A DNA stretch of 64,000 nt, from the NCBI GenBank assembly GCA_963793865.1, contig CAWCBP010000004.1, positions 64,703 to 128,702 on the forward strand. The letters are read 5' to 3'. The notes under the pieces are model-generated. The model saw only the letters and a program-made list of their open reading frames with translations. It ran no database searches and was not told the DNA's origin. The position numbers were made by a program, and so were the translations under genes. Below are positions 7,870-58,630 of the stretch, piece after piece; position 1 is the first letter of the stretch, and each line of letters starts with the position of its first letter. The DNA comes from an uncultured delta proteobacterium. Lineage in GTDB: Bacteria > Desulfobacterota > WTBG01.

Positions 7870-9222
7870 ATGAAACGAGTGAAGCTGCTGATTGTCGATG
7901 ACGAAGAAAAGATCCTTCAAACCATGAAGGGAAGCCTGGAAGATGAGGATTATGAAGTGCTCACCGCCAAGGACGGGCAGGAGGCCATGGAGAAAGTCCG
8001 CTCGGAAAATCCCGAACTGGTTTTTCTTGACATCTGGCTCCCGGGGATGGACGGCATGGAAACCCTCAAGGCCATCAAGGAATATGACCAGAACCTCGAC
8101 GTGGTGATCATGACCGGACACGGGACCATGAATACCGCCATCCAGGCCATCAAGCTCGGTGCCTTTGACTTTCTGGAAAAACCACTTTCCCTGGACTCCA
8201 TCTTCTCCGTCATTCACAGCGCCCTGGAACAAAAAAGGGGCAGGGCCGAGGAGGCGGAGCCGGCGATTGAGGAGCCGGACGATTTCATCGGTGAAAGCCT
8301 TTCCATCATGCAGATCAAGAAGGAGATAAAGAAGCTTGCCAAAACCGGGAAAAACCTCTTCATCACCGGGGAGAGCGGAACGGGAAAGGAGTTTGCGGCC
8401 CGGCTCATTCACCACGAGAGCCCGCGGAGAAAAAACCCCTTTATCAAATTCAGCTGCACCATCTATTCCCCCGAAGAAATGAGCCACAATCTTTTCGGGA
8501 CGGCGGCGCATGCATCCAGGAAAAACCTGGTTCGAAAAGCCGGCGAGCTGGAGCGGGCGGCAAAGGGGACCCTGTTTCTGGACACCATCGAGGAAATGCC
8601 TCTTTCCATCCAGGAAGAGTTGGCGGAGGCGCTCAAGAAGAAAAAAAACAAGGGGGGCGGCAAACAGGACAAGGCAAATGAGCCGAGAATCCTGGCATCG
8701 TCGAATGACGATCCGGCCTTAATGGTCAAAGAGGGCAAGTTGAACCAGGAGCTTTACGGGCTGCTGGCGGAGGGCACCATCATGCTGCCTCCCCTGCGGG
8801 AGCGAAAGGATGATATCCTGAAGATCTTTACCTTCTTCATGGAGGGATTCTCGCAGAAACACGGCCGGAAGATAAAAGAGCTGGATGAAGACGCGCAGGA
8901 AGCGCTGATGAACTACCACTGGCCGGGCAACAGCAAGGAGCTCAAAAATTTTGCCGAGCGGCTGGTAACATCCGTGGTGACCACCGCCAAAATCGGCCTG
9001 GAAAGCCTGCCCCTTTCCATGCGGGGAGAGCTCGCCGCTTCAAAAACGCGCGCCTTCGACAAATACACTTCCATGAAGGAGGCGGAAAATGCCTGGAAAA
9101 AGGAGTTTCTCATCTTCCACCTGAAGAAGCACAACGTCGACATTCCCGCAACCGCGCGGAGCCTCGGCATGCGCCAGGACACGCTGAGGCGCCATATAGA
9201 CACCTTCGGCATCAAGCTGATG
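7870..9222 (+). CDS. ntrX: sigma-54-dependent response regulator (NtrX/NtrC family: REC + AAA+ sigma-54 activator + Fis-type HTH); no stop codon, reads in-frame into lpxC
   Basis: Receiver LLIVDDEE...DIWLPGMDG; the AAA+ Walker A motif GESGTGKE; a GAFDF-like motif; and a C-terminal HTH ATARSLGMRQDTLRRHIDTFGI. It is 451 aa, a typical NtrC-family length, but the ORF continues without a stop into the next gene. Confidence 0.75.
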
Positions 9223-10083
9223 CCCGGCAAAAAAACCGCGGCGGGTCCCCGCCAGAGAACGCTCAAGAAAAGCGTGGTCTTAAGCGGTGAGGGGCTTCAT
9301 TCAGGGATGAAATCGGGGCTGATACTGTCTCCCCTTCCGCCCAACAGCGGGATCGTGTTCGGCAACATCACTACCAGCGATACCGTGCCCGCCCACCTTG
9401 ACTTCGTGGAATCCACCGACTACGCCACCTCCCTGAAGAGCGGGCAGGCGTATGCCCGGACCATCGAACACTTCATGGCGGTGCTCCATGCCTACCACAT
9501 CAGCAACCTTCAGGTCAAAATCAGCGGCGAAATCCCCATCATGGACGGCTCGGCGCTTGAATTCTGCCAGCTTATCGAGGAGGCGGGCATCGATGAGCAG
9601 GACGCCCCCCTCGAGGAAATCGTCATCGAGGAGAAATATGTGGTCGGCGACCCCTCGCCGGACTCCAAGTACATTTCCATAGAGCCGCACCCCTCCTTCA
9701 CCGTCAAATACCTGCTCAACTACCCCAGCCCGGTGGGCAAACAGGAATTCTCCTTCACCTTAAAGGACGCTCAATCCTTTAAGGACCTCATCGCACCGGC
9801 ACGCACCTTCGGCTTCCTCAAGGATATTGGTGAGCTGCAGAAGCGGGGTTTGGCCAGCGGGGGAAAGCTGCTCAACTGTATTCTCATCGATGATGAAAAG
9901 GTGGTGAACACTGAGCTGCGCTTCCCGGAAGAGTTTGCCCGCCACAAAATCCTTGATCTCATGGGCGACTTTTACCTGCTGGGCAAACCCATACGCGGCC
10001 TGGTGACCGCCCAGATGACCGGCCACACGGACAACAGCGAGCTCTTAAAAAAGATACGTGACAGCCTCGGCGCCTTCTGGTAA
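9223..10083 (+). CDS. lpxC: UDP-3-O-acyl-N-acetylglucosamine deacetylase
   Basis: MPGKKTAAGPRQRTLKKSVVLSGEGLHSGMK...EHFMAVL...IPIMDGSA...ARTFGF..GGKLLNCILIDD...HKILDLMGDFYLLG aligns along its full length to LpxC (about 287 aa). It sits in the same frame as ntrX with no intervening stop. Confidence 0.8.
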   Translation, partial: PGKKTAAGPRQRTLKKSVVLSGEGLHSGMKSGLILSPLPPNSGIVFGNITTSDTVPAHLDFVESTDYATSLKSGQAYARTIEHFMAVLHAYHISNLQVKISGEIPIMDGSALEFCQLIEEAGIDEQDAPLEEIVIEEKYVVGDPSPDSKYISIEPHPSFTVKYLLNYPSPVGKQEFSFTLKDAQSFKDLIAPARTFGFLKDIGELQKRGLASGGKLLNCILIDDEKVVNTELRFPEEFARHKILDLMGDFYLLGKPIRGLVTAQMTGHTDNSELLKKIRDSLGAFW

Positions 10084-12066: not shown

Positions 12067-13162
12067 CTACTGGCTGAACTTGAAGTGGAGCATGTCCCCG
12101 TCACGGACGGTATACTCTTTTCCCTCCAGGCGCAGGTGACCTTCCTCCCGGGCCGCTGAAAGGGAGCCCGCTTTCACAAAGTCATCATAGGACACCACCT
12201 CGGCCTTGATGAAGCCGTGCTCCATATCGGAATGGATTTTTCCGGCGGCCTGCGGCGCTTTGGTCCCCCTGGCCACGGTCCACGCCCGCAGCTCCGTGCC
12301 CACGGTGGTATAAAAGGTAATCAGGTTGAGCACGCCGTAGCCGGCCTTAACCAGCTGCTCCAGGCCCGATTCCGCGAGTCCCATGTCCGCCATAAATTCC
12401 TTCCGCTCCTCCTCGCTCTCAAGCAGCGCGATCTCGGCCTCAAGGTCACCGCAAATGACAACGAACCCCGCCTGTTCCCGCCGCGCCCTTTCTTCCACCG
12501 CTGCCGAGCGGCTCCTCTGCCCGGAGGTCCTCCTCGTCCACATTTGCCACATACAGGAGCGGCTTGGCGGTCAGGAGGGAGAGCTCGTGCAGGACATGAA
12601 GCTCCTGCCCGTCCCACTCCATGGTTCGCACCGTCCTCCCCTGCTCCAGGCCCGACTGCGCCTTGCGGTACACGGCCATTTCCTCCTCCGCTTTTTTATC
12701 CCCGACCCGCAGGAGCTTCCCCGCTTTTTCCATCCGCTTTTCCACCGTCTGCAGATCGGCCAGCATCAGTTCCGTGGCAACAATCTCCATGTCCCGCCCC
12801 GGATCAAGATCCCCGTAAAGGTGAGAAACATCATGTTTTTTAAAGCAGCGGACCACGTGGGCGATGGCATCCACCGCGCGGATGTGCCCCAAAAACTGGT
12901 TTCCCAGCCCTTCCCCCCGGCTGGCGCCTTTGACTAGGCCGGCAATATCCACAAATTCAATGGTGGTCGGGGTAACCGCGGGCGGCTTGATCATCGCCGC
13001 GATGGTCTGCAACCGCCGGTCCGGGACGGCAACCGTCCCCTTGTTGCAGTCGATGGTGCAGAAGGGATAGCTGGAGGCGGGCACCTGCGCCGAGGCCAGG
13101 GCGTTGAAAATCGTCGATTTGCCCACATTGGGCAATCCTACAATGCCGCAGGTGAAACCCAT
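12067..13162 (-). CDS. ychF: ribosome-binding ATPase YchF (Obg-family GTPase); one frameshift around 12446-12552
   Basis: The N-terminus MGFTCGIVGLPNVGKSTIFNAL (P-loop) and the C-terminal TGS domain ...KIHSDMEHGFIKAEVVSYDDF... lie in two overlapping ORFs (12446..13162 and 12067..12552) that together span 365 codons. Confidence 0.8.
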
Positions 13163-15489: not shown

Positions 15490-16083
15490 CTACCATATGT
15501 GCTCTTGTTTCATAGCATTCATGTTCTCAGGATTATCCTGATCCAATTCCCATTGCAATGGATTATTGAGGATGTACTCGCGTGCACGGTTTAACTCTTC
15601 TTCCCTGCGGATAACATGTTCGTAGTAATTGCGCTGCCACAATTTCCCTGAATAACGGGGCCATTTCAATTGTTTCACACCATCTGAATACCGTTTGATG
15701 GTCATGGTTTTAAAGCTTTGTACCAAGTCCGGTAATCCCTTTGTAGGGGCAACCCCCCGTGGTTGCCCATTATGCGCAGGGCAGGCACGGGGGCCTGCCC
15801 CTACCAAGACAATGATTCCATGCACATGATTAGGCATCACAACAAATGCATCTGTTTCTACCCCCTGATAATGTGATGACAATTCTTCCCAGATCACCTG
15901 AACCATCCCTCCAGCAGTATTTAAAAGCATCTGTCCTTTAATAACTTCACCAAACAAACATTGCCTATTCTGTGTGCACAGGGTTATAAAATACGCTCCC
16001 GACTGGGCGTAATCGTATCCGCTTAACCTTATTGAACGGCGTCTATTTCCTGGCCGGGTGTTTATGATTATGTCCTGTATCAT
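15490..16083 (-). mobile_element. REP-associated tyrosine transposase (RAYT, IS200/IS605 TnpA_REP-like) carrying an in-frame internal REP copy
   Basis: HUH motif NHVHGII, catalytic-Tyr region WQRNYYEHVIRREEELNRAREYILNNPLQWE. Residues VGAGPRACPAHNGQPRGVAPTKG are the translation of a REP copy (15743-15803) lying inside the ORF. Confidence 0.8.
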
Positions 16084-36199: not shown

Positions 36200-39100
36200 T
36201 CAGTATATCTCCCCGAACAGGCAATAATCACAGCAGTTCATTCTGCCCAGGGCTTTATCAATCATCACCAGCACATCAAAGATGTCTATGTCATTATCGC
36301 TCTCACAGTTCGGGGTACCGGATGGATTTCCGCAATAGGGAGGCAAACCATTGGGCACATCCCCGTTACCAATCTGGCAGTCAGTAGCCGTCTGGAGATT
36401 CAGGATAATATCAACCGCTTCAAGGATATCAAACAGGTCCACTATGCCGTCGCCGCAGCAGGTCGGAGCACCGCAGGTCCCGCCGATGCAGTCCTGGGGA
36501 TAAATATCACCGCAGGTGGTGAAGCAGACCTCGCCCGGGCTTTCGCAAACGCACAGATCCTCGTTATACTGATCTGAAATCTTGCTGGCAACCGGACAAA
36601 GATCAACGCAGGCGTCCTCGCCACAGGTATCCTGCTCAGGCCCTGCTGAATAGACTATCCGGGCAACGGTTCCTCTTCCCTGTGTAATAATGGCCGACGG
36701 ATCGGTCGAGTACAGGACTATCCTGCAGCACCCGTCTGCCTGCTCATTAGCTGAGCAGCTGAAATCGAGGGCGCGGTCAGGATCAACCACACACTGGGTG
36801 CATACCAGGTTGTCCTCCCCGCCTGCGCACTCACAGATATCCGTGACCATCGCCCGTATACTATGTTCCGGGTTAATGAGATTCAGATCAACCAGCCCCG
36901 ACTCGCTGTTGGGCTGCATGTTGGTGTCGCCAATATCCACAATCACCTTGCCGATGTCGATTTCTACACTATCAGTACCCCATTCGCAGGTGTCGGTTAC
37001 CGTTATTTCGTATTGCGCAATTTTATCAAGCTGCTGGCAGGAATCGTCAATGGTCAACCTCCAGCAGCAGTTATCGATCTGGTCAATGCTTAAGAATGGT
37101 TCTGCCGGATCGATTGACCACGCCAGGCACGACGGATCGAACGGGTCGCAGTCAGAGCAGACAGTAAAATCGATGACATCATTACATGTGGCGGCAAGTC
37201 CGCGCCTTCCCGGCCGGTTGTATGCGGGATCATTAATCTCTTCACCGGGGCACGTCCTGCCCCGGGCAATTTCAATACCGCACACACAGCCCGGAATCTT
37301 GGTTCCAACACACGTACCGGCAACGCAGACATCGTCTTTGGTACAGGAGTCGGCATCATTGCAGGGTAGTGTATTGTTGGGATTGCTGCAGCCCACTCCT
37401 ACTGTGCATATGTCGCCAGTGCAAACATTATTGTCGGAACAGAGTGTATTGTCAGGCGTTCCGTTACAGGTACCGTCTGAGCAGGTGTCGTTCTGGGTGC
37501 AGGCCAGCGTATCATCGCAGGGCAGAGTGTTGTTAGGATGGGAGCATGTTCCGGAACCGTTGCAGACGTCATTGGTGCAGACGTTGCCATCGTCATCGGT
37601 ACAGGTGGTACCGTTAGCGGTATAGCAGTTATCTGCGGATTCGTTACAAGTGTTGTTGCAATCAGGCCCGCTGCTGCAGGGATCGCCGGCATGGACTGAG
37701 CAACTCCCTACGCCGCAGGTATCGGTACCGTTGCAGTATAAGCCGTCATCGCAGGCGGTACCGTCAGGAGGATAGCAGTTGTCGGCAGTCTCGTTGCATG
37801 TATTGTTGCAGGCCGGCCCGCCAATGCAGGGGTCGCCGGCATGCACTGAGCAACTCCCGCCGCTGCAGGTATCGGTACCATTGCAGTATACGCTGTCATC
37901 GCAGGGCAGAGTGTTGTTAGAATGGGAGCAGGTTCCGGAGCCGTCGCAGACATCGTTGGTGCAGACGTTGCCGTCATCGGTACAGGAGGTGCCGCTTGAG
38001 GTGGAGCAGTTATCTGCGGATTCGTTGCAGGTATTGTTGCAATCAGGCCCGCTGCTGCAGGGATCGCCGGCATGGACTGAGCAACTCCCGCCGCTGCAGG
38101 TATCGGTACCATTGCAGTATAAGCCGTCAGTGCAGGCGGTGCCGTTAGGGGGATAGCAGTTGTCGGCAGCCTCGTTGCAGGTGTTGTTGCAGATGGGCCC
38201 GCCGCTGCAGGGGTCCCCGGCATGAACAGAACAACTCCCGCCGCTGCAGGTATCCGTACCAGTGCAGTACAAGCCGTCATTGCAGGATGCGGTGTTGTTG
38301 GTATGCACGCAGCCGGTCGAGATATTACAGCTGTCAGTTAGTGCAGATGTTGCTGTCATCACAATTTGGTGCCGCTCCTCCAACGCATGTCCCGCCTGAA
38401 CAGGTGTCACTGGTGGTGCAGGCGTTTCCGTCATTGCAGGATGCGGTGTTGTTGGTATGCACGCAGCCGGTCGAGATATTGCAGCTGTCGTTGGTGCAGA
38501 CGTTGCTGTCATCACAATTTGGTGCCGCTCCTCCAACGCATGTCCCGCCTGAACAGGTGTCACTGGTGGTGCAGGCGTTTCCGTCATTGCAGGATGCGGT
38601 GTTGTTGGTATGCACGCAGCCGGTCGAGATATTGCAGCTATCGTTGGTGCAGACGTTGCTGTCATCACAGCTCAGTGCCGCTCCTCCAACGCATGTCCCG
38701 CCTGAACAGGTGTCACTGGTGGTGCAGGCGTTTCCGTCGCTGCAGGATGCGGTGTTGTTGGTATGCACGCAGCCGGTCGAGATATTGCAGCTATCGTTGG
38801 TACAGACGTTGCTGTCATCACAGCTCAGTGCCGCTCCTCCAACGCATGTCCCGCCTGAACAGGTGTCACTGGTGGTGCAGGCGTTTCCGTCATTGCAGGA
38901 TGCGGTGTTGTTGGTATGCACGCAGCCGGTCGAGATATTGCAGCTGTCGTTGGTGCAGATGTTGCTGTCATCACAATTTGGTGCCGCTCCTCCAACGCAT
39001 GTCCCGCCTGAACAGGTGTCACTGGTGGTGCAGGCGTTTCCGTCATTGCAGGATGCGGTGTTGTTGGTATGCACGCAGCCGGTCGAGATATTGCAGTTGT

Positions 39101-41069
39101 CGTTGGTGCAGACGTTGCTGTCATCACAATTTGGTGCCGCTCCTCCAACGCATGTCCCGCCTGAACAGGTGTCACTGGTGGTGCAGGCGTTTCCGTCATT
39201 GCAGGATGCGGTGTTGTTGGTATGCACGCAGCCGGTCGAGATATTGCAGCTGTCGTTGGTGCAGACGTTGCTGTCATCACAATTCGGTGCCGCTCCTCCA
39301 ACGCATGTCCCGCCTGAACAGGTGTCACTGGTGGTGCAGGCGTTTCCGTCATTGCAGGATGCGGTGTTGTTGGTATGCACGCAGCCGGTCGAGATATTGC
39401 AGCTATCGTTGGTGCAGACGTTGCTGTCATCACAATTTAGTGCCGCTCCTCCAACGCATGTCCCGCCTGAACAGGTGTCACTGGTGGTGCAGGCGTTTCC
39501 GTCATTGCAGGATGCGGTGTTGTTGGTATGCACGCAGCCGGTCGAGATATTGCAGCTATCGTTGGTGCAGACGTTGCTGTCATCACAATTAGGTGCCGCT
39601 CCTCCAACGCATGTCCCGCCTGAACAGGTGTCACTGGTGGTGCAGGCGTTTCCGTCATTGCAGGATGCGGTGTTGTTGGTATGCACGCAGCCGGTCGAGA
39701 TATTGCAGCTGTCGTTGGTGCAGGCGTTGCTGTCATCACAGCTCAGTGCCGCACCACCAACGCATGTCCCGCCTGAACAGGTGTCACTGGTGGTGCAGGC
39801 GTTTCCGTCATTGCAGGATGCGGTGTTGTTGGTATGCACGCAGCCGGTCGAGATATTGCAGCTATCGTTGGTGCAGATGTTGCTATCATCACAGCTCAGT
39901 GCCGCTCCACCAACGCATGTCCCGCCTGAACAGGTGTCACTGGTGGTGCAGGCGTTTCCGTCATTGCAGGATGCGGTGTTGTTGGTATGGGTGCACGTTC
40001 CGGAGCCGTCGCAGAGATCGTCGGTGCAGACATTGCCATCATCGGCGCAGGATGTCCCGCTTGTGGTGTAGCAGTTATCTCCGGATTCGTTACAGGTGTT
40101 GTTGCACTCAGAGCCACCAGTGCAGGGGTCTCCAGAGTGCACACAGCTCCCTCCGCTGCAGGTGTCGGCGCCGTTGCAGTATAAGCCGTCATCACAGGAA
40201 TACCCATCCTCTCTCGGGGTGGAAACGCACTGACCAGTTCTGGTGCTGCATACACCGACGCTGCAGGCATCATCCAGGTCTGAACAGTCGACATTCTGGC
40301 AAATATTAGGATCGGTTGCAGTGGTGACACAATCTGACGGGTCAGAATTCGGCTGCTCCGAGGCAATAGCACAGGAATCGGAAATTGGCACACAATCACT
40401 GTCTACGCCACAACTAGCTCCGCTTACGGCACACATGTTATTTTCGCAACGCTCGCCATACACGATGTCATCTATTTCTATCAGGCATTTGACGAACGCA
40501 TCTTCAGTAGTACAGTCTGTCCCAAAACAAGTGTGTGTAATACCATAGGGATCAGCATCTTCTCCTGATGGTTCGCTTCCGCCCACATTTACATAACAAA
40601 TGGAAGTAAATGCTTCAATTTCAACGCTATTAGTACACCTATCATACCTATCATCGTTACACTGGAAAAATCTCGGGCTGAAAGAGCTCTGAGTCGCCGG
40701 AGGACCACCCTCAACGGTCACACAGAGTGCATAGTTCGCGTATGTGTCAAAGTCCGAATCGAAAAGTATACAGCTATTACCCGTGTTAGCACCAGACCAT
40801 CTTGTGTCATCAAAGTTGAACGTCACAGTCAGTTCAAACTGATTCTCACCCGGTCCCACACAGTACTCGGTTACGTCCTTTTGACCCGGTTCGTCATCCA
40901 TCCCTTGCAGGTCTACGCTACAGACCTGCGCCGCTACCGGCAAAACATCGATGGATGAGTAGCCCAAAACGATTGCAAACGTGAAGATCAGTAGTATGAG
41001 AAAGCTTTTTGTTTCTTTCCCGATGATTATTGATGATGAACGTTTTCCCGCTACTTTTCTCAATATCAA
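36200..41069 (-). CDS. giant secreted Cys-rich repeat protein (about 1620 aa) with about 11 tandem 50-aa repeats and a C-terminal dockerin-like domain; one 1-bp frameshift near 38340
   Basis: N-terminal TM/signal sequence. Repeats are CDDSNVCTNDSCNISTGCVHTNNTASCNDGNACTTSDTCSGGTCVGGAAPN. The downstream modules are diverged (CNGTDTCSGGSCSVHAGDPC...). The terminal region GDGIVDLFDILEAVDIIL...SDNDIDIFDVLVMIDKALG resembles paired dockerin Ca-binding segments. ORFs 38334..41069 and 36200..38668 are joined by removing one inserted T in the last repeat. Confidence 0.7.
38340..39960. repeat. tandem array of about 11 near-identical 150-bp coding repeats (in-frame, inside the giant Cys-rich gene)
   Basis: Copies show more than 95 % nucleotide identity with scattered point differences (AALS/AAPN/AALN variants). 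Every alternative-frame ORF in the six-frame track across this span is repeat shadow. Confidence 0.9.
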
Positions 41070-50018: not shown

Positions 50019-51398
50019 ATGACAGGGCGATATGATCTGGTTGTAGCAGGTGCAGGACCGGCGGGCATCATGGCCGCGAAGGTTGCGGCCGGGAACGGCC
50101 TGTCGGTTGCGCTGCTTGAAAGAAAGCAAGACATGACTGCCGTCAGGCGGTCCTGCGCAACCATGTTCGCCATTGAAGATGATTACCTGTTCGGTGAGAG
50201 GATGTACTTTAACGCCCGGCAGAAAAAGCTGGTGTTCCCCGTGAACGGCTTCAGCGTGAACTATAAAGGTCCGCATAAAAACTTTTACGGGCAGGTGCTC
50301 TATGCCCCCGACGGTGAAACCTGCATCAGGATGGGCAACTATGAAGAAAACCGCGCCAGGGGAGACGAAGGACGTTTATCAGTAGTCTATGATAAGGAGG
50401 AACTGTTAACGGGCATGCTCACCGAAGCCGCAGACAGCGGGGCTGAAATAATATCCGGCATGAATGTGAACGGGGTGCACAAAAACAAGGAAAGCGTCAC
50501 GGTAACCACCGCCAACGGCCCTGCATTTGAGTCAACCTTTGTCATTGCCGCGGACGGTCTCAACTCAGGCATCGCCGAATGGCTGGGCCTCAACAAAAAA
50601 CGGATATGGTACGGGACCGTCAAAACAATATCTTACGCGGTAACCGGCGTTTCGCTGCCGGCTCCGCTTACCTATAAAATGACCAACATTTTCGAGAAAA
50701 AGTATGGCCTGCCCCTCACTTATGGCATCGTTCCCCGGGCCTCGGGAGATGATACCTTCTGGCTTTTTATCGGCGGTCCCGCAGATGACAGGATAGACTA
50801 CGATGGCGCACTGCGGGATTTCATGCAGGATAGTCCCTTCGCCTCCTGGTTTCCCGGGGCGCGCCTGGGCACGAAACAGTGTGCGGTCCTCAACATACTC
50901 TCTCCCATAGAGGACCCCTTCTGCGACAATGTGCTGGTTATCGGAGACGCCGCGTGGAATTTTGAAGCGGAAATTACCGGCGCCATCATGTGCGGCTGGA
51001 AGTCAGCGCACGCCGTAACCGTTGCGCTGCGGGACAACAGGCCCTCCAGGGAAGGCGTGGCACGGTATCTCACCTGGTGGCGGGAGTCATTTTTGCGCAA
51101 TGATTACCGGGGCTACTTGCGGAGCCTGGCCTTGCTCTATGTTTTCAACGCGGCGGACATTGCTTACGTGTACGGGCTGATCGAGAAGCCGCTTCCCTGC
51201 ACCCTGAACCCTCACAGGCTGCAGGAGCTGATGAATGCCGCCATCGGGGAGAAAATGGGGGTCATACAGAAGCAAAGGCCGGACATTATCGCCAAGTTCC
51301 GGCAGATTGCCACCGATCCCCTGGAGGAACTTTTAAAACCGCTGCGCTGTCTCCCCCCGGTAATAACCGCGGGGTATCTCCAGCAGGGCACTGAATGA
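50019..51398 (+). CDS. FAD-dependent oxidoreductase (geranylgeranyl-reductase family)
   Basis: MTGRYDLVVAGAGPAGIMAAKVAA contains the dinucleotide-binding GxGxxG. 459 aa. Confidence 0.75.
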   Translation: MTGRYDLVVAGAGPAGIMAAKVAAGNGLSVALLERKQDMTAVRRSCATMFAIEDDYLFGERMYFNARQKKLVFPVNGFSVNYKGPHKNFYGQVLYAPDGETCIRMGNYEENRARGDEGRLSVVYDKEELLTGMLTEAADSGAEIISGMNVNGVHKNKESVTVTTANGPAFESTFVIAADGLNSGIAEWLGLNKKRIWYGTVKTISYAVTGVSLPAPLTYKMTNIFEKKYGLPLTYGIVPRASGDDTFWLFIGGPADDRIDYDGALRDFMQDSPFASWFPGARLGTKQCAVLNILSPIEDPFCDNVLVIGDAAWNFEAEITGAIMCGWKSAHAVTVALRDNRPSREGVARYLTWWRESFLRNDYRGYLRSLALLYVFNAADIAYVYGLIEKPLPCTLNPHRLQELMNAAIGEKMGVIQKQRPDIIAKFRQIATDPLEELLKPLRCLPPVITAGYLQQGTE

Positions 51399-51532
51399 CC
51401 ATCCTTCCGGAGCGACCCATGCAGGGGAACCTGCGTAACTATAGATTGACAGGAAAGCATGTTTCTCTTACAATTGCTTCGCAAAGATGGTTTTTCAACT
51501 GTGTTTCACAATATCCTCAAGAAAGGAGATGG

Positions 51533-52388
51533 TATGAAAACGTTCACCTGCAGGCTGTTTATAGTGTTATGTGCGCTTGTCACGCTTTTCTGCAACCTTC
51601 CTGATGCCGGCGCAAAGATTGAATGGTCTATTTTAAAGAACATTCCCCTCGAGGACACCCCCCGCGATATAGCCCTTTCGCGGGAAGGCACCACCGCGTA
51701 TATTCTCTGCAGCAAGAGCGTGCAGGTGTACTCGTTAACCGACAACAAGATTACCGCAACCATTCCACTCACCGGGGAGTTTTCCCAGCTGGCCCTTTCA
51801 CCCGACGGCGAAAAGCTTTTCCTCACCCAGGGCACGGGAAAACAGCTCACCATTATTCAAATTGAGCAGGTGTACGACATTCCCAAGGGCACGTCGCAGG
51901 TCATGGGCAAAGCCGCCGCGCCGGTCACGATTTTCGCCTTCCTGGATTACCAGTGACCCTACTGCAGCAGGATTTATCCTGTACTTGAGCAGTTGCTCAA
52001 GCAGCGTCCCAATGATGTAAACATGGTCATTAAACATTTTCCTCTCCCTATGCACAAATTCGCGGAGAAGGCTTCACTGGCGGCCCTGGCTGCTGCCAGG
52101 CAGAATAAATATCAGGAGCTGAGCGCGGCCCTGATGAGCGATTTCCAGAACTTAAGTGACGAATCCATCAAGAAGCACGCGGAAACAGCCGGGCTGGACA
52201 TGACAAAATTTAACGCCGCGTACAATGATCCGACACTTAAAAAACAGATCGAGGAAGACAAGCAGTTGGGCATGAGCATCAGCGTGAGGGGTGTGCCGGC
52301 AATCTTCCTGAATGGAAAAGCAGTCAAAGACCGCTCGGTCCAGGGACTTAACCAGATGATTGACGAGGCGCTGAAGAAGGCCAAATAA
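51533..52388 (+). CDS. DsbA-like thiol:disulfide oxidoreductase; candidate selenoprotein (in-frame TGA 51954-51956 at the first Cys position of the CxxC motif)
   Basis: Signal peptide MKTFTCRLFIVLCALVTLFC after AAGGAG. Two same-frame ORFs (51459..51956 and 51993..52388) are separated only by the TGA within ...FAFLDYQ-[TGA]-PYCSRIYPVLEQ..., giving a U-P-Y-C thioredoxin-fold active site. Inverted repeats CAGGAT..ATCCTG and CTTGAGC..GCTCAAG lie immediately 3' of the TGA. Confidence 0.65.
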
Positions 52389-52415: not shown

Positions 52416-52446
52416 CCCCCTCTCTCCACGGGTAGAGGGGGTTTTT
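52416..52446 (+). terminator. rho-independent terminator after the DsbA-like gene
   Basis: CCCCCTCT-ctccacgggt-AGAGGGGG followed by TTTTT. Confidence 0.75.
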
Positions 52447-57589: not shown

Positions 57590-58630
57590 TTACAGATAAT
57601 TTTTTATCTCAGGGAGTTCCTTCGAGTTTGCACTTCTATTCACTGCGGACGTCGTCATCCCCAGATACCGCGCTACTTCTGCTCCATAATAGTTGAGCTT
57701 CTTCACCGCCAGCTGACACAATATCCTGCGTGCTCGTACCGCTGCCGCGCTCCTGCTCCCTCCTCTCAAAACTTTCTCTTCCACACCTTCGCGATTCGCT
57801 ATTTCCTGGGCCAATGAATCGAGATCCCTTCCTTTTAAAGACAAGCGCAATGTCTCCTTCTCTTTTCCCTCGGCCTCACGTAACAGTCCGCTCACAAAAT
57901 CACTGCTCCCCAGTATACGGTCATCATGGACGATCTGCATCCCTTTCCGCCTCAGCGATACTACCTGCGACCAGCCCCCCAGGCTGCGTATCAATCCCCC
58001 TCCTACTAATTCAGGCCGTCTTCCCTGACCTACCCCTTCTCTTACAAATTCTTCATATTTCATAACCGCAGTTTTCCTCCTACTGCCAAAATAGCCAAGT
58101 ACCGTTTCCACATCCTGCCATTCCCGTTTTACATTTCCCAGCAGTGCTGCATGTCCTGTCCATACATACCGGCTCAGCTCGCCCATCCCTTTTACCACGC
58201 CGGCTCGCAATGGATTAAGATGGATGTATCGGGTGAGCTCTAAAAGATAAGGATCGTCTTCACAGATGATTGACTTGTATCTGTTTTGAAAAAGATGGCC
58301 ATAGCGTTTGTGCCGGCGATTAAAATTGACCACATAGCCGGTCAATAGCTTCTTCATACTATACGACAGCGATTGCCGGCATGTCCGTATCAACAGGTGG
58401 AAGTGGTTTTCCATCAATGCAAAGGCATATACTTTCCATGCTTTTTCCTGGCACAACAGGGCTACCCGGTTGAGAAAGTCTTTCCGATCGTCCTTGTGTC
58501 TGAATATGGCTGTTTTTTCTATCCCCCGGCCCATCACATGATGGAGCGTTCCGGGGGCATCAAGTCGTGCTTGTCGCGGCATACGGCCTCTCTGTTCCCT
58601 TTCAAATACCCTGTCAAGATAATTATGCAC
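57590..58630 (-). mobile_element. Y1 (HUH) transposase-like protein, IS200-like N-domain with DnaA-type C-terminal HTH
   Basis: The sequence ...ENHFHLLIRT (HuH motif) with an upstream LDAPGTLHHVMGRG. The C-terminus is RRILCQLAVKKLNYYGAEVARYLGMTTSAVNRS. 346 aa. Confidence 0.65.

Follow-up and report, generated by a model that had tools for sequence, protein, structure and literature searches.

DsbA-like selenoproteins of the UxxC type, which carry selenocysteine (Sec) at the first position of the redox motif, were reported in 2005 from the Sargasso Sea, with nine sequences and a figure of the selenocysteine insertion sequence (SECIS) element (Zhang et al., Genome Biol, PMC1088965). Such proteins were also described in the genomes of Anaeromyxobacter, Desulfovibrio, and Desulfotomaculum (Zhang et al. 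2006, PMC1794560), and a 2026 review lists a "DsbA-like protein form 1, PF01323, UxxC" (PMC13188914), for which NIP15863.1 serves as the published reference sequence. In this study, we analyzed computationally a gene located at positions 51534-52388 (+ strand) of a 64,000-nucleotide stretch of DNA from an uncultured delta proteobacterium (contig CAWCBP010000004.1), hereafter referred to as the window. A preliminary description of the window had proposed this gene as a candidate DsbA-like selenoprotein and had placed the replacement of Cys by Sec in DsbA-like proteins among the known classes, as the two studies by Zhang et al. confirm. Our results indicate that the in-frame UGA at 51954-51956 very probably encodes Sec, which replaces the first Cys of a CPYC motif.

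The gene belongs to a kind of selenoprotein known since 2005. It resembles the described DsbA-like UxxC family in its PF01323 domain, in the presence of Sec at the first Cys of CxxC, in the downstream hairpin with a G in its loop, and in the existence of widespread Cys homologs. Moreover, anaerobic deltaproteobacteria, among them Anaeromyxobacter and Desulfovibrio, possess members of the family. Unlike the Sargasso Sea family, which was assigned to COG2761 (FrnE-like), the protein encoded in the window scores equally on PF13462 and adds an N-terminal module of two YVTN blades. This module, a ScsC-like domain, and an arrangement of two hairpins may define a subfamily that has not been explicitly described, the published family being compared here by its description only. 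The current understanding of selenoproteins is left unchanged by this gene.

An in-frame UGA at a catalytic position

Reading and translating the sequence revealed a single frame that runs from the ATG at 51534-51536 to the TAA at 52386-52388 and comprises 284 sense codons plus the stop; the preliminary description had set the start one base too early, at 51533. The sole in-frame stop within these limits is the TGA at 51954-51956, which is codon 141 and lies in the context FAFLDYQ-TGA-PYCSRIYPVLEQLL. As that description had pointed out, this triplet is the only break between two open reading frames (ORFs) of the same frame. With the UGA read as Sec, residue 141 occupies the first position of a U-P-Y-C redox motif (51954-51965), and 51534-52388 makes up a complete selenoprotein gene, of a length that agrees with homologs of 280-295 aa.

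In a search covering 5.8 billion proteins, we obtained over 100 homologs with a length of about 285 aa; 120 homologs were listed. The motif C-P-[YFH]-C stands at the aligned position in 116 of the 120 listed homologs. As for the four exceptions, P0111 stops at ...FLDYQ, P0106 has W where its DNA reads TGA, P0065 has CPYF, and P0118 is a 441-aa two-domain protein that aligns in part only. We also scanned metagenome contigs at the codon level for the pattern D-[YF]-Q-TGA-P-Y-C, which was matched by at least 120 contigs. In at least 115 loci from metagenomes or metagenome-assembled genomes (MAGs), TGA is found at the same codon, with both flanks matching the query protein and open for 60 to more than 300 codons, and at least 48 of the TGA-bearing metagenomic loci share the full two-domain architecture. 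Because the TGA aligns with a Cys that is invariant in a 30-sequence alignment of homologs, and because it recurs as TGA in at least 115 independent loci, its position is not due to chance, in line with the earlier judgment that it was too specific for that.

TGA-bearing relatives are found at several distances. The protein encoded at locus L001 is 80% identical in amino acid sequence to that of the window, and this locus carries the TGA, both hairpins described below, and the same PilZ neighbor. L002 is 64% identical and carries the TGA, and L004, from the GTDB representative MAG of Thermodesulfobacteriota PL23a_bin.71, combines 54% identity with the TGA and both hairpins. Cys orthologs at 79-83% identity exist in the same gene neighborhood as the gene of the window; an alignment with such orthologs had been advised in the preliminary description. 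In the Cys-type loci L204 and L205, the neighborhood consists of a formate/nitrite transporter, PilZ, the DsbA-like gene, a 213-aa ORF, Peptidase_M10, PilZ, and an aldo/keto reductase. Since the gene neighborhood is shared, L001, L204, and L205 are true orthologs with different catalytic residues.

The frame 3' of the TGA is open for 143 codons. When the gene of the window was compared with L001, both being TGA-bearing, the ratio of nonsynonymous to synonymous substitution rates (dN/dS) was 0.144 after the TGA and 0.148 before it. Because the value downstream equals the value upstream (about 0.14 on either side), which denotes purifying selection, we conclude that the part downstream of the TGA is translated. 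This result bears on the possibility that the UGA is a true stop, in which case the product would be a 140-aa exported protein with two YVTN blades, and the DsbA part would be either untranslated or re-initiated at the TTG at 51993 or at a later ATG. Gene callers do annotate L001 in this way, as P0111 plus a separate 112-aa DSBA ORF, and a TTG-started ORF of 131 aa (51993-52388) figures in the ORF listing of the window. However, a re-initiated fragment would have neither the signal peptide nor the nucleophile of CxxC, and no Shine-Dalgarno sequence precedes 51993, which itself lies inside the second hairpin. Furthermore, the 12 codons from the TGA to the TTG (P-Y-C-S-R-I-Y-P-V-L-E-Q) are conserved at the protein level in all forms, and the homologs of about 285 aa, more than 100 in number, are single polypeptides. 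Termination at this codon is thus very improbable.

A further possibility is that the UGA is decoded as an amino acid other than Sec, either through a reassigned code (Trp or Gly) or through near-cognate or suppressor read-through (Trp or Cys). One annotation pipeline did write W for the TGA of L002, in the protein P0106 mentioned above. Nevertheless, TGA terminates 10 of the 31 Pfam-supported ORFs in the window, and hence the genetic code is standard here and a reassigned code can be rejected. Besides, the position corresponds to the invariant catalytic Cys, so that Trp or Gly would inactivate the enzyme, and the UGA is followed by a conserved hairpin with a G-[G/U] loop, a signature of SelB-dependent decoding. 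We consider decoding as another amino acid extremely unlikely, slightly more so than termination, and Sec insertion as the reading that best accounts for the codon.

Two hairpins downstream of the UGA

For the 62-nt stretch that starts at the UGA, the predicted folding energy is -18.8 kcal/mol (z = -2.4 relative to shuffles). Within this stretch, we found the two stem-loops noticed in the preliminary description, CAGGAT/ATCCTG within 51967-51982 and CTTGAGC/GCTCAAG at 51984-52001. The suggestion that a SECIS element sits just 3' of the UGA holds for the second of them, which fits the bacterial model, and does not extend to the first, about 12 nt downstream, which has no G in its loop. Both hairpins keep a constant register after the UGA across the two-domain subfamily. 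We counted their pairing, with the same structure throughout, on gapless alignments of 48 distinct Sec forms and 34 Cys forms.

Hairpin 2 (51984-52001) consists of a 7-bp stem, CUUGAGC/GCUCAAG, with the apical loop AGUU (51991-51994), and has a predicted energy of -8.9 kcal/mol. The published bacterial SECIS model (PMC13188914) demands an apical loop of 3-9 nt on a stem of 4-16 bp, a G within the first two nucleotides of the loop, in most cases with G or U after it, a UGA-to-loop spacing of 16-37 nt, and a minimum free energy of -7.5 kcal/mol or lower. All four constraints are fitted by hairpin 2, with its 4-nt loop on 7 bp, its G at loop position 2 followed by U, its loop beginning 34 nt past the UGA, and the energy given above. 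The comparison among relatives points in the same direction. Paired cells amount to 93.5% in the 48 Sec forms versus 55.9% in the 34 Cys forms. Among the Sec forms, five of the seven pairs are altered on both sides, and one of the pairs is G-C in 27 forms and C-G in 20. In 500 shuffles, neither the covariation score nor the percentage paired ever attained the observed value, and registers slid along the alignment were 35-43% paired. The same hairpin was recovered independently by RNAalifold. When the count was restricted to sequences encoding L-x-Q-x-L, hairpin 2 had on average 6.4 of its 7 pairs among Sec forms, compared with 5.0 among Cys forms, and the probability of obtaining all seven pairs given the peptide LEQLLK and the codon usage of the window is p = 0.011. 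Part of the pairing is due to synonymous Leu codons that follow an E/Q replacement in the other arm of the stem, and this is a signal at the RNA level.

Hairpin 1 (51967-51982), GCAGGA-UUUA-UCCUGU, has a predicted energy of -6.4 kcal/mol, and its CAGGAU/AUCCUG pairing begins 11-12 nt past the UGA. An A-U pair of its stem is changed to G-C by compensation in L002 and L004. Its paired cells reach 62.5% in Sec forms, compared with 45.1% in Cys forms. We also examined hairpin 1 as the SECIS element itself and rejected it, given its UUUA loop without G and its lower conservation. Because it has no loop G in the window, yet shows clean compensation in L002 and L004, we treat it as probably an accessory or spacer element. 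RNAalifold proposed in addition a stem CAGUG/UACUG around the UGA (51951-51964), to which we give no evidential weight, as its five pairs come from the Q-U-P-Y-C codons that were fixed by the search pattern.

In E. coli, the minimal SECIS element lies 11 nt from the UGA and contains a bulged U. Like the SECIS elements of E. coli fdhF and fdnG, the hairpin of the window is located inside the coding sequence, 3' of the UGA, and has a small apical loop in which a G is followed by U. Unlike them, it is predicted to have no bulge, and a separate 6-bp hairpin intervenes between the UGA and its G-containing loop, which stands 34 nt from the codon. Other subfamilies of DsbA-like proteins with U-P-Y-C (L095, L096, L139, L184, L190, and others) are devoid of the YVTN module or extend further at the N- or C-terminus. 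Loci of this type show a single hairpin in another placement, for example GUCCAGC-GGUC-GCUGGAC about 19 nt past the UGA, the loop of which, GGUC, we take to be that of the fdhF-type SECIS of E. coli.

The hairpins of the Cys orthologs are in different states of preservation. In L204 and L205 the loop of hairpin 2 reads AGAU and hairpin 1 is broken, in L206 the loop reads AGCU, and L203 has lost one stem pair. In L010, the catalytic codon is TGC, and both hairpins are still intact. The decaying hairpins of L203-L206 and the two retained by the Cys form L010 are consistent with a recent switch between Sec and Cys, in either direction.

Several observations weigh against the insertion of Sec at this codon. 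Pfam annotation of 40 ORFs revealed no selA, selB, or selD in the 64-kb window, and ARAGORN found no tRNA-Sec there (nor did it find one in 36 related loci). A six-frame scan of the window for TGA codons bridging open stretches yielded no other credible selenoprotein gene, the remaining matches being shadow frames of annotated genes. No SECIS family of Rfam was detected, either at gathering thresholds over the whole window or at permissive E-values in 51850-52150, where the only match was a chance one to a long noncoding RNA (E 4.7). Concerning hairpin 2, its distance of 34 nt between UGA and loop is close to the upper bound of the model, and the conserved peptide L-E-Q-[VL]-L-[EK] favors part of the pairing, so that Cys forms are still paired at 56%. 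Finally, the three closest relatives by protein identity among the homologs listed (79-83%) use Cys, and the TGA-bearing L002, located on an ENA contig of 914 bp, is interrupted by an in-frame TAA 39 codons past the TGA, at 870-880, where the window has Ser; L002 may be a pseudogene or a poor assembly.

The last two of these points also speak for a pseudogene or a sequencing error in the window, that is, a TGC or TGT (the codons present in the three closest homologs) that became TGA by mutation or base-calling error, truncating a Cys-type gene and leaving its downstream part dead. The possible errors noted in the preliminary description, as well as oddities of the window such as overlapping or split ORFs, would also fit. 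However, independently assembled relatives with 80%, 64%, and 54% identity also carry the TGA, as do over 100 other loci, the downstream frame is open for its 143 codons with a dN/dS of 0.144, equal to that upstream, and the codon is followed by a covarying hairpin that is specific to TGA forms. In view of these data, we attach as little weight to a dead or misread gene as to true termination. Even taken together, this explanation, termination, and decoding as another amino acid are unlikely.

If the UGA encodes Sec, as we find very probable, the established bacterial pathway suggests how this would take place. SelB-GTP carrying Sec-tRNA(Sec) would bind the AGUU-loop hairpin in the mRNA and deliver Sec to the UGA located 34 nt upstream of that loop, in competition with release factor 2. 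Hairpin 1 probably positions or stabilizes hairpin 2 during this process.

A predicted exported oxidoreductase with YVTN blades

From its sequence, the product is predicted to be an exported thiol:disulfide oxidoreductase in which a putative signal peptide is followed by two YVTN blades and then by a ScsC-like DsbA domain bearing U-P-Y-C. Residues 1-27 (51534-51614) resemble by eye a Sec-type (secretory) signal peptide, MKTFTCRLFIVLCALVTLFCNLPDAGA|K, with a basic n-region, a hydrophobic core, an A-G-A cleavage motif, and no lipobox. Residues 33-109 (51630-51860) form two beta-propeller blades of the YVTN type, as indicated by a phmmer match to the YVTN propeller of the surface-layer protein 1L0Q (E 8e-21), by an NCBIfam beta-propeller repeat match, and by the strands of the structural model described below. 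Residues 119-278 (51888-52367) correspond to the DsbA-like thioredoxin-fold domain, identified by Pfam and Foldseek. With Cys put in place of Sec at codon 141, this protein scored 80.4 bits on DSBA (PF01323; cut-off 25.6) and 80.3 bits on Thioredoxin_4 (PF13462; cut-off 23.2), with E about 2e-22 in both cases. Both matches cover the TGA, and the alignment to the invariant Cys agrees with the earlier placement of this codon at the first Cys of CxxC. Val254-Pro255 (52293-52298) are invariant columns that align with the G-[VT]-P loop of solved DsbA and ScsC chains and thus represent the cis-proline loop of the thioredoxin fold.

As a stand-in for the protein of the window, we used a structural model of P0001, a Cys ortholog with 83% identity. 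This AlphaFold (AF2) model, with a pLDDT (predicted local distance difference test) of 92.6, comprises an N-terminal helix that stands apart from the domains, eight beta-strands, and then the DsbA fold, in which C152 of CxxC lies directly ahead of helix 153-168. In the modeled catalytic domain, a helical domain is inserted into the thioredoxin fold, CxxC stands at the N-terminal end of helix 1, and the cis-Pro loop is present. Foldseek with the P0001 model placed its catalytic domain with 3GYK, Wolbachia alpha-DsbA2, BdbD, and ScsC at target-normalized template-modeling (TM) scores of 0.75-0.82, the entries including 6EEZ and 3EU4.

The best matches among solved proteins are DsbA-like structures of the ScsC type or from alphaproteobacteria (E 4e-14 to 1e-10; target-normalized TM 0.62-0.82). 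The set compared comprises 3GYK from Silicibacter, ScsC of Proteus mirabilis (PmScsC; 4XVW, 6NEN, and 6MHH), ScsC of Caulobacter (CcScsC; 7RGV), and ScsC of Salmonella (4GXZ). In 3GYK and PmScsC, the active site has the context [FT]-D-Y-x-C-P-Y-C and the same cis-Pro loop as the protein of the window; in particular, FTDYNCPYC of PmScsC (E 4e-11 to 6e-11) compares with FLDYQ-U-PYC. The solved ScsC and 3GYK proteins use Cys, whereas that of the window has Sec. PmScsC and CcScsC reportedly oligomerize through an N-terminal helical domain, in place of which the protein of the window has YVTN blades. The genetic context is also different, as no scsA, scsB, or scsD gene and no ScsB/DsbD-like gene is adjacent in the window; L204 has the same neighborhood.

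None of the NCBIfam equivalogs reaches its cut-off for this protein. The E. coli-type DsbA family NF008198 (39.5 bits, cut-off 279) and the DsbG family NF008657 (27.4 bits, cut-off 124) do not include it. The best NCBIfam match is the Rcas_1661 family thioredoxin-like (seleno)lipoprotein NF041057, which is exported and thioredoxin-like and exists in Sec and Cys forms. We rejected membership in NF041057 as well, since the score was 45.4 bits against a cut-off of 190 and no lipobox of the type [LVI][ASTVI][GAS]C is present.

Once synthesized, the full-length protein would be exported, and its U-P-Y-C center would exchange selenenylsulfide and disulfide bonds with substrate proteins. A role as reductase or isomerase seems more likely than oxidation of the DsbA type, because of the motif and of the ScsC-type proteins that are its nearest solved relatives, as well as by analogy with CPYC-type DsbG; this assignment is speculative. 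Equally speculatively, the YVTN blades may bind substrate or drive oligomerization. If the latter were true, this would be a periplasmic disulfide isomerase or reductase that depends on selenium and represents a new quaternary type.

We tentatively propose that the combination of YVTN blades with a ScsC-like U-P-Y-C domain marks a distinct, uncatalogued, exported subfamily in Thermodesulfobacteriota, a proposal that we regard as possible rather than probable. Such a subfamily would count at least 48 metagenomic Sec members and would be characterized by frequent recent switching between Sec and Cys and by a two-hairpin SECIS, in which a spacer hairpin precedes a hairpin with an AG[G/U]U loop at the far limit of the allowed distance between UGA and loop. 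In any case, the gene adds to the UxxC oxidoreductases a well-populated, putatively exported group with closely related Sec and Cys forms. Orthologs that are 79-83% identical and differ at the catalytic residue, with SECIS elements in decay, constitute a convenient natural system for the study of Sec/Cys exchange and of the birth and death of SECIS elements within coding sequence. In practical terms, standard gene callers split or truncate this gene; in the annotation of its orthologs, the two parts figure as a "hypothetical protein" and an independent DSBA ORF, or the UGA is given as W. Recognizing the gene corrects this annotation and marks the organism as a likely user of Sec.

Flanking signals, neighboring genes, and other features of the window

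Direct reading of the sequence revealed a Shine-Dalgarno sequence, GGAG, at 51525-51528 (+), 5 nt ahead of the ATG. A consensus scan yielded a sigma-70-like promoter candidate at 51446-51474 (+), TTGACA-17 nt-TACAAT, which matches the consensus at 11 of 12 positions. An upstream ATG at 51459 lies inside this candidate and, for this reason, is presumably not the start codon. Downstream, a pattern scan located an intrinsic-terminator-like hairpin followed by TTTTT at 52418-52446 (+). Since the promoter-like site and the terminator-like hairpin flank the gene, 51534-52388 is probably a single, monocistronic gene.

The upstream neighbor, at 50019-51398 (+), encodes an FAD-binding flavoprotein (Pfam FAD_binding_3) of the geranylgeranyl-reductase type, and its 90% cluster contains proteins named digeranylgeranylglycerophospholipid reductase or flavin-dependent dehydrogenase. 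This gene and the terminator-like hairpin are the two neighbors already recognized in the preliminary description. Altogether, the neighbors of the selenoprotein gene in the window are PilZ, the FAD flavoprotein, Peptidase_M10, PilZ, and an aldo/keto reductase. The flavoprotein gene is placed between the PilZ gene and the selenoprotein gene, and no flavoprotein gene is called at this spot in the syntenic loci L001, L204, and L205; hence, it looks like a lineage-specific insertion.

Elsewhere in the window, within a single ORF of 737 aa at 7870-10083 (+), a sigma-54 response regulator with receiver, AAA+, and lid domains (ending in ...RRHIDTFGIKL) runs directly into a complete LpxC (MPGKK...QRTLKKSVVLSGEGLHSG...), and no stop separates the two parts. 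This ORF is either a real in-frame fusion, the result of a lost stop, or an assembly error. At 38274-39989, a tandem repeat of 153 nt (11.2 copies, 97% identity) lies within the ORFs 36200-38668 and 38334-41069 of the minus strand and encodes Cys-rich units of 51 aa, with 10 stretches matching Pfam Dicty_CTDC. Because these two ORFs run over each other for about 335 nt in different frames, they may be parts of one giant repeat protein that a frameshift or a collapsed repeat has interrupted. On the same strand, a small GTPase (MMR_HSR1, ORF 12446-13162) is followed by an overlapping ORF of 161 aa in another frame (12067-12552), and this overlap, within 12067-13162, may be one of the frameshifts mentioned in the preliminary description. 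Domains of IS200-like Y1 transposases are encoded at 15490-16083 (-) and 57590-58630 (-), and the latter ORF, with 346 aa, is far longer than a typical IS200 TnpA.

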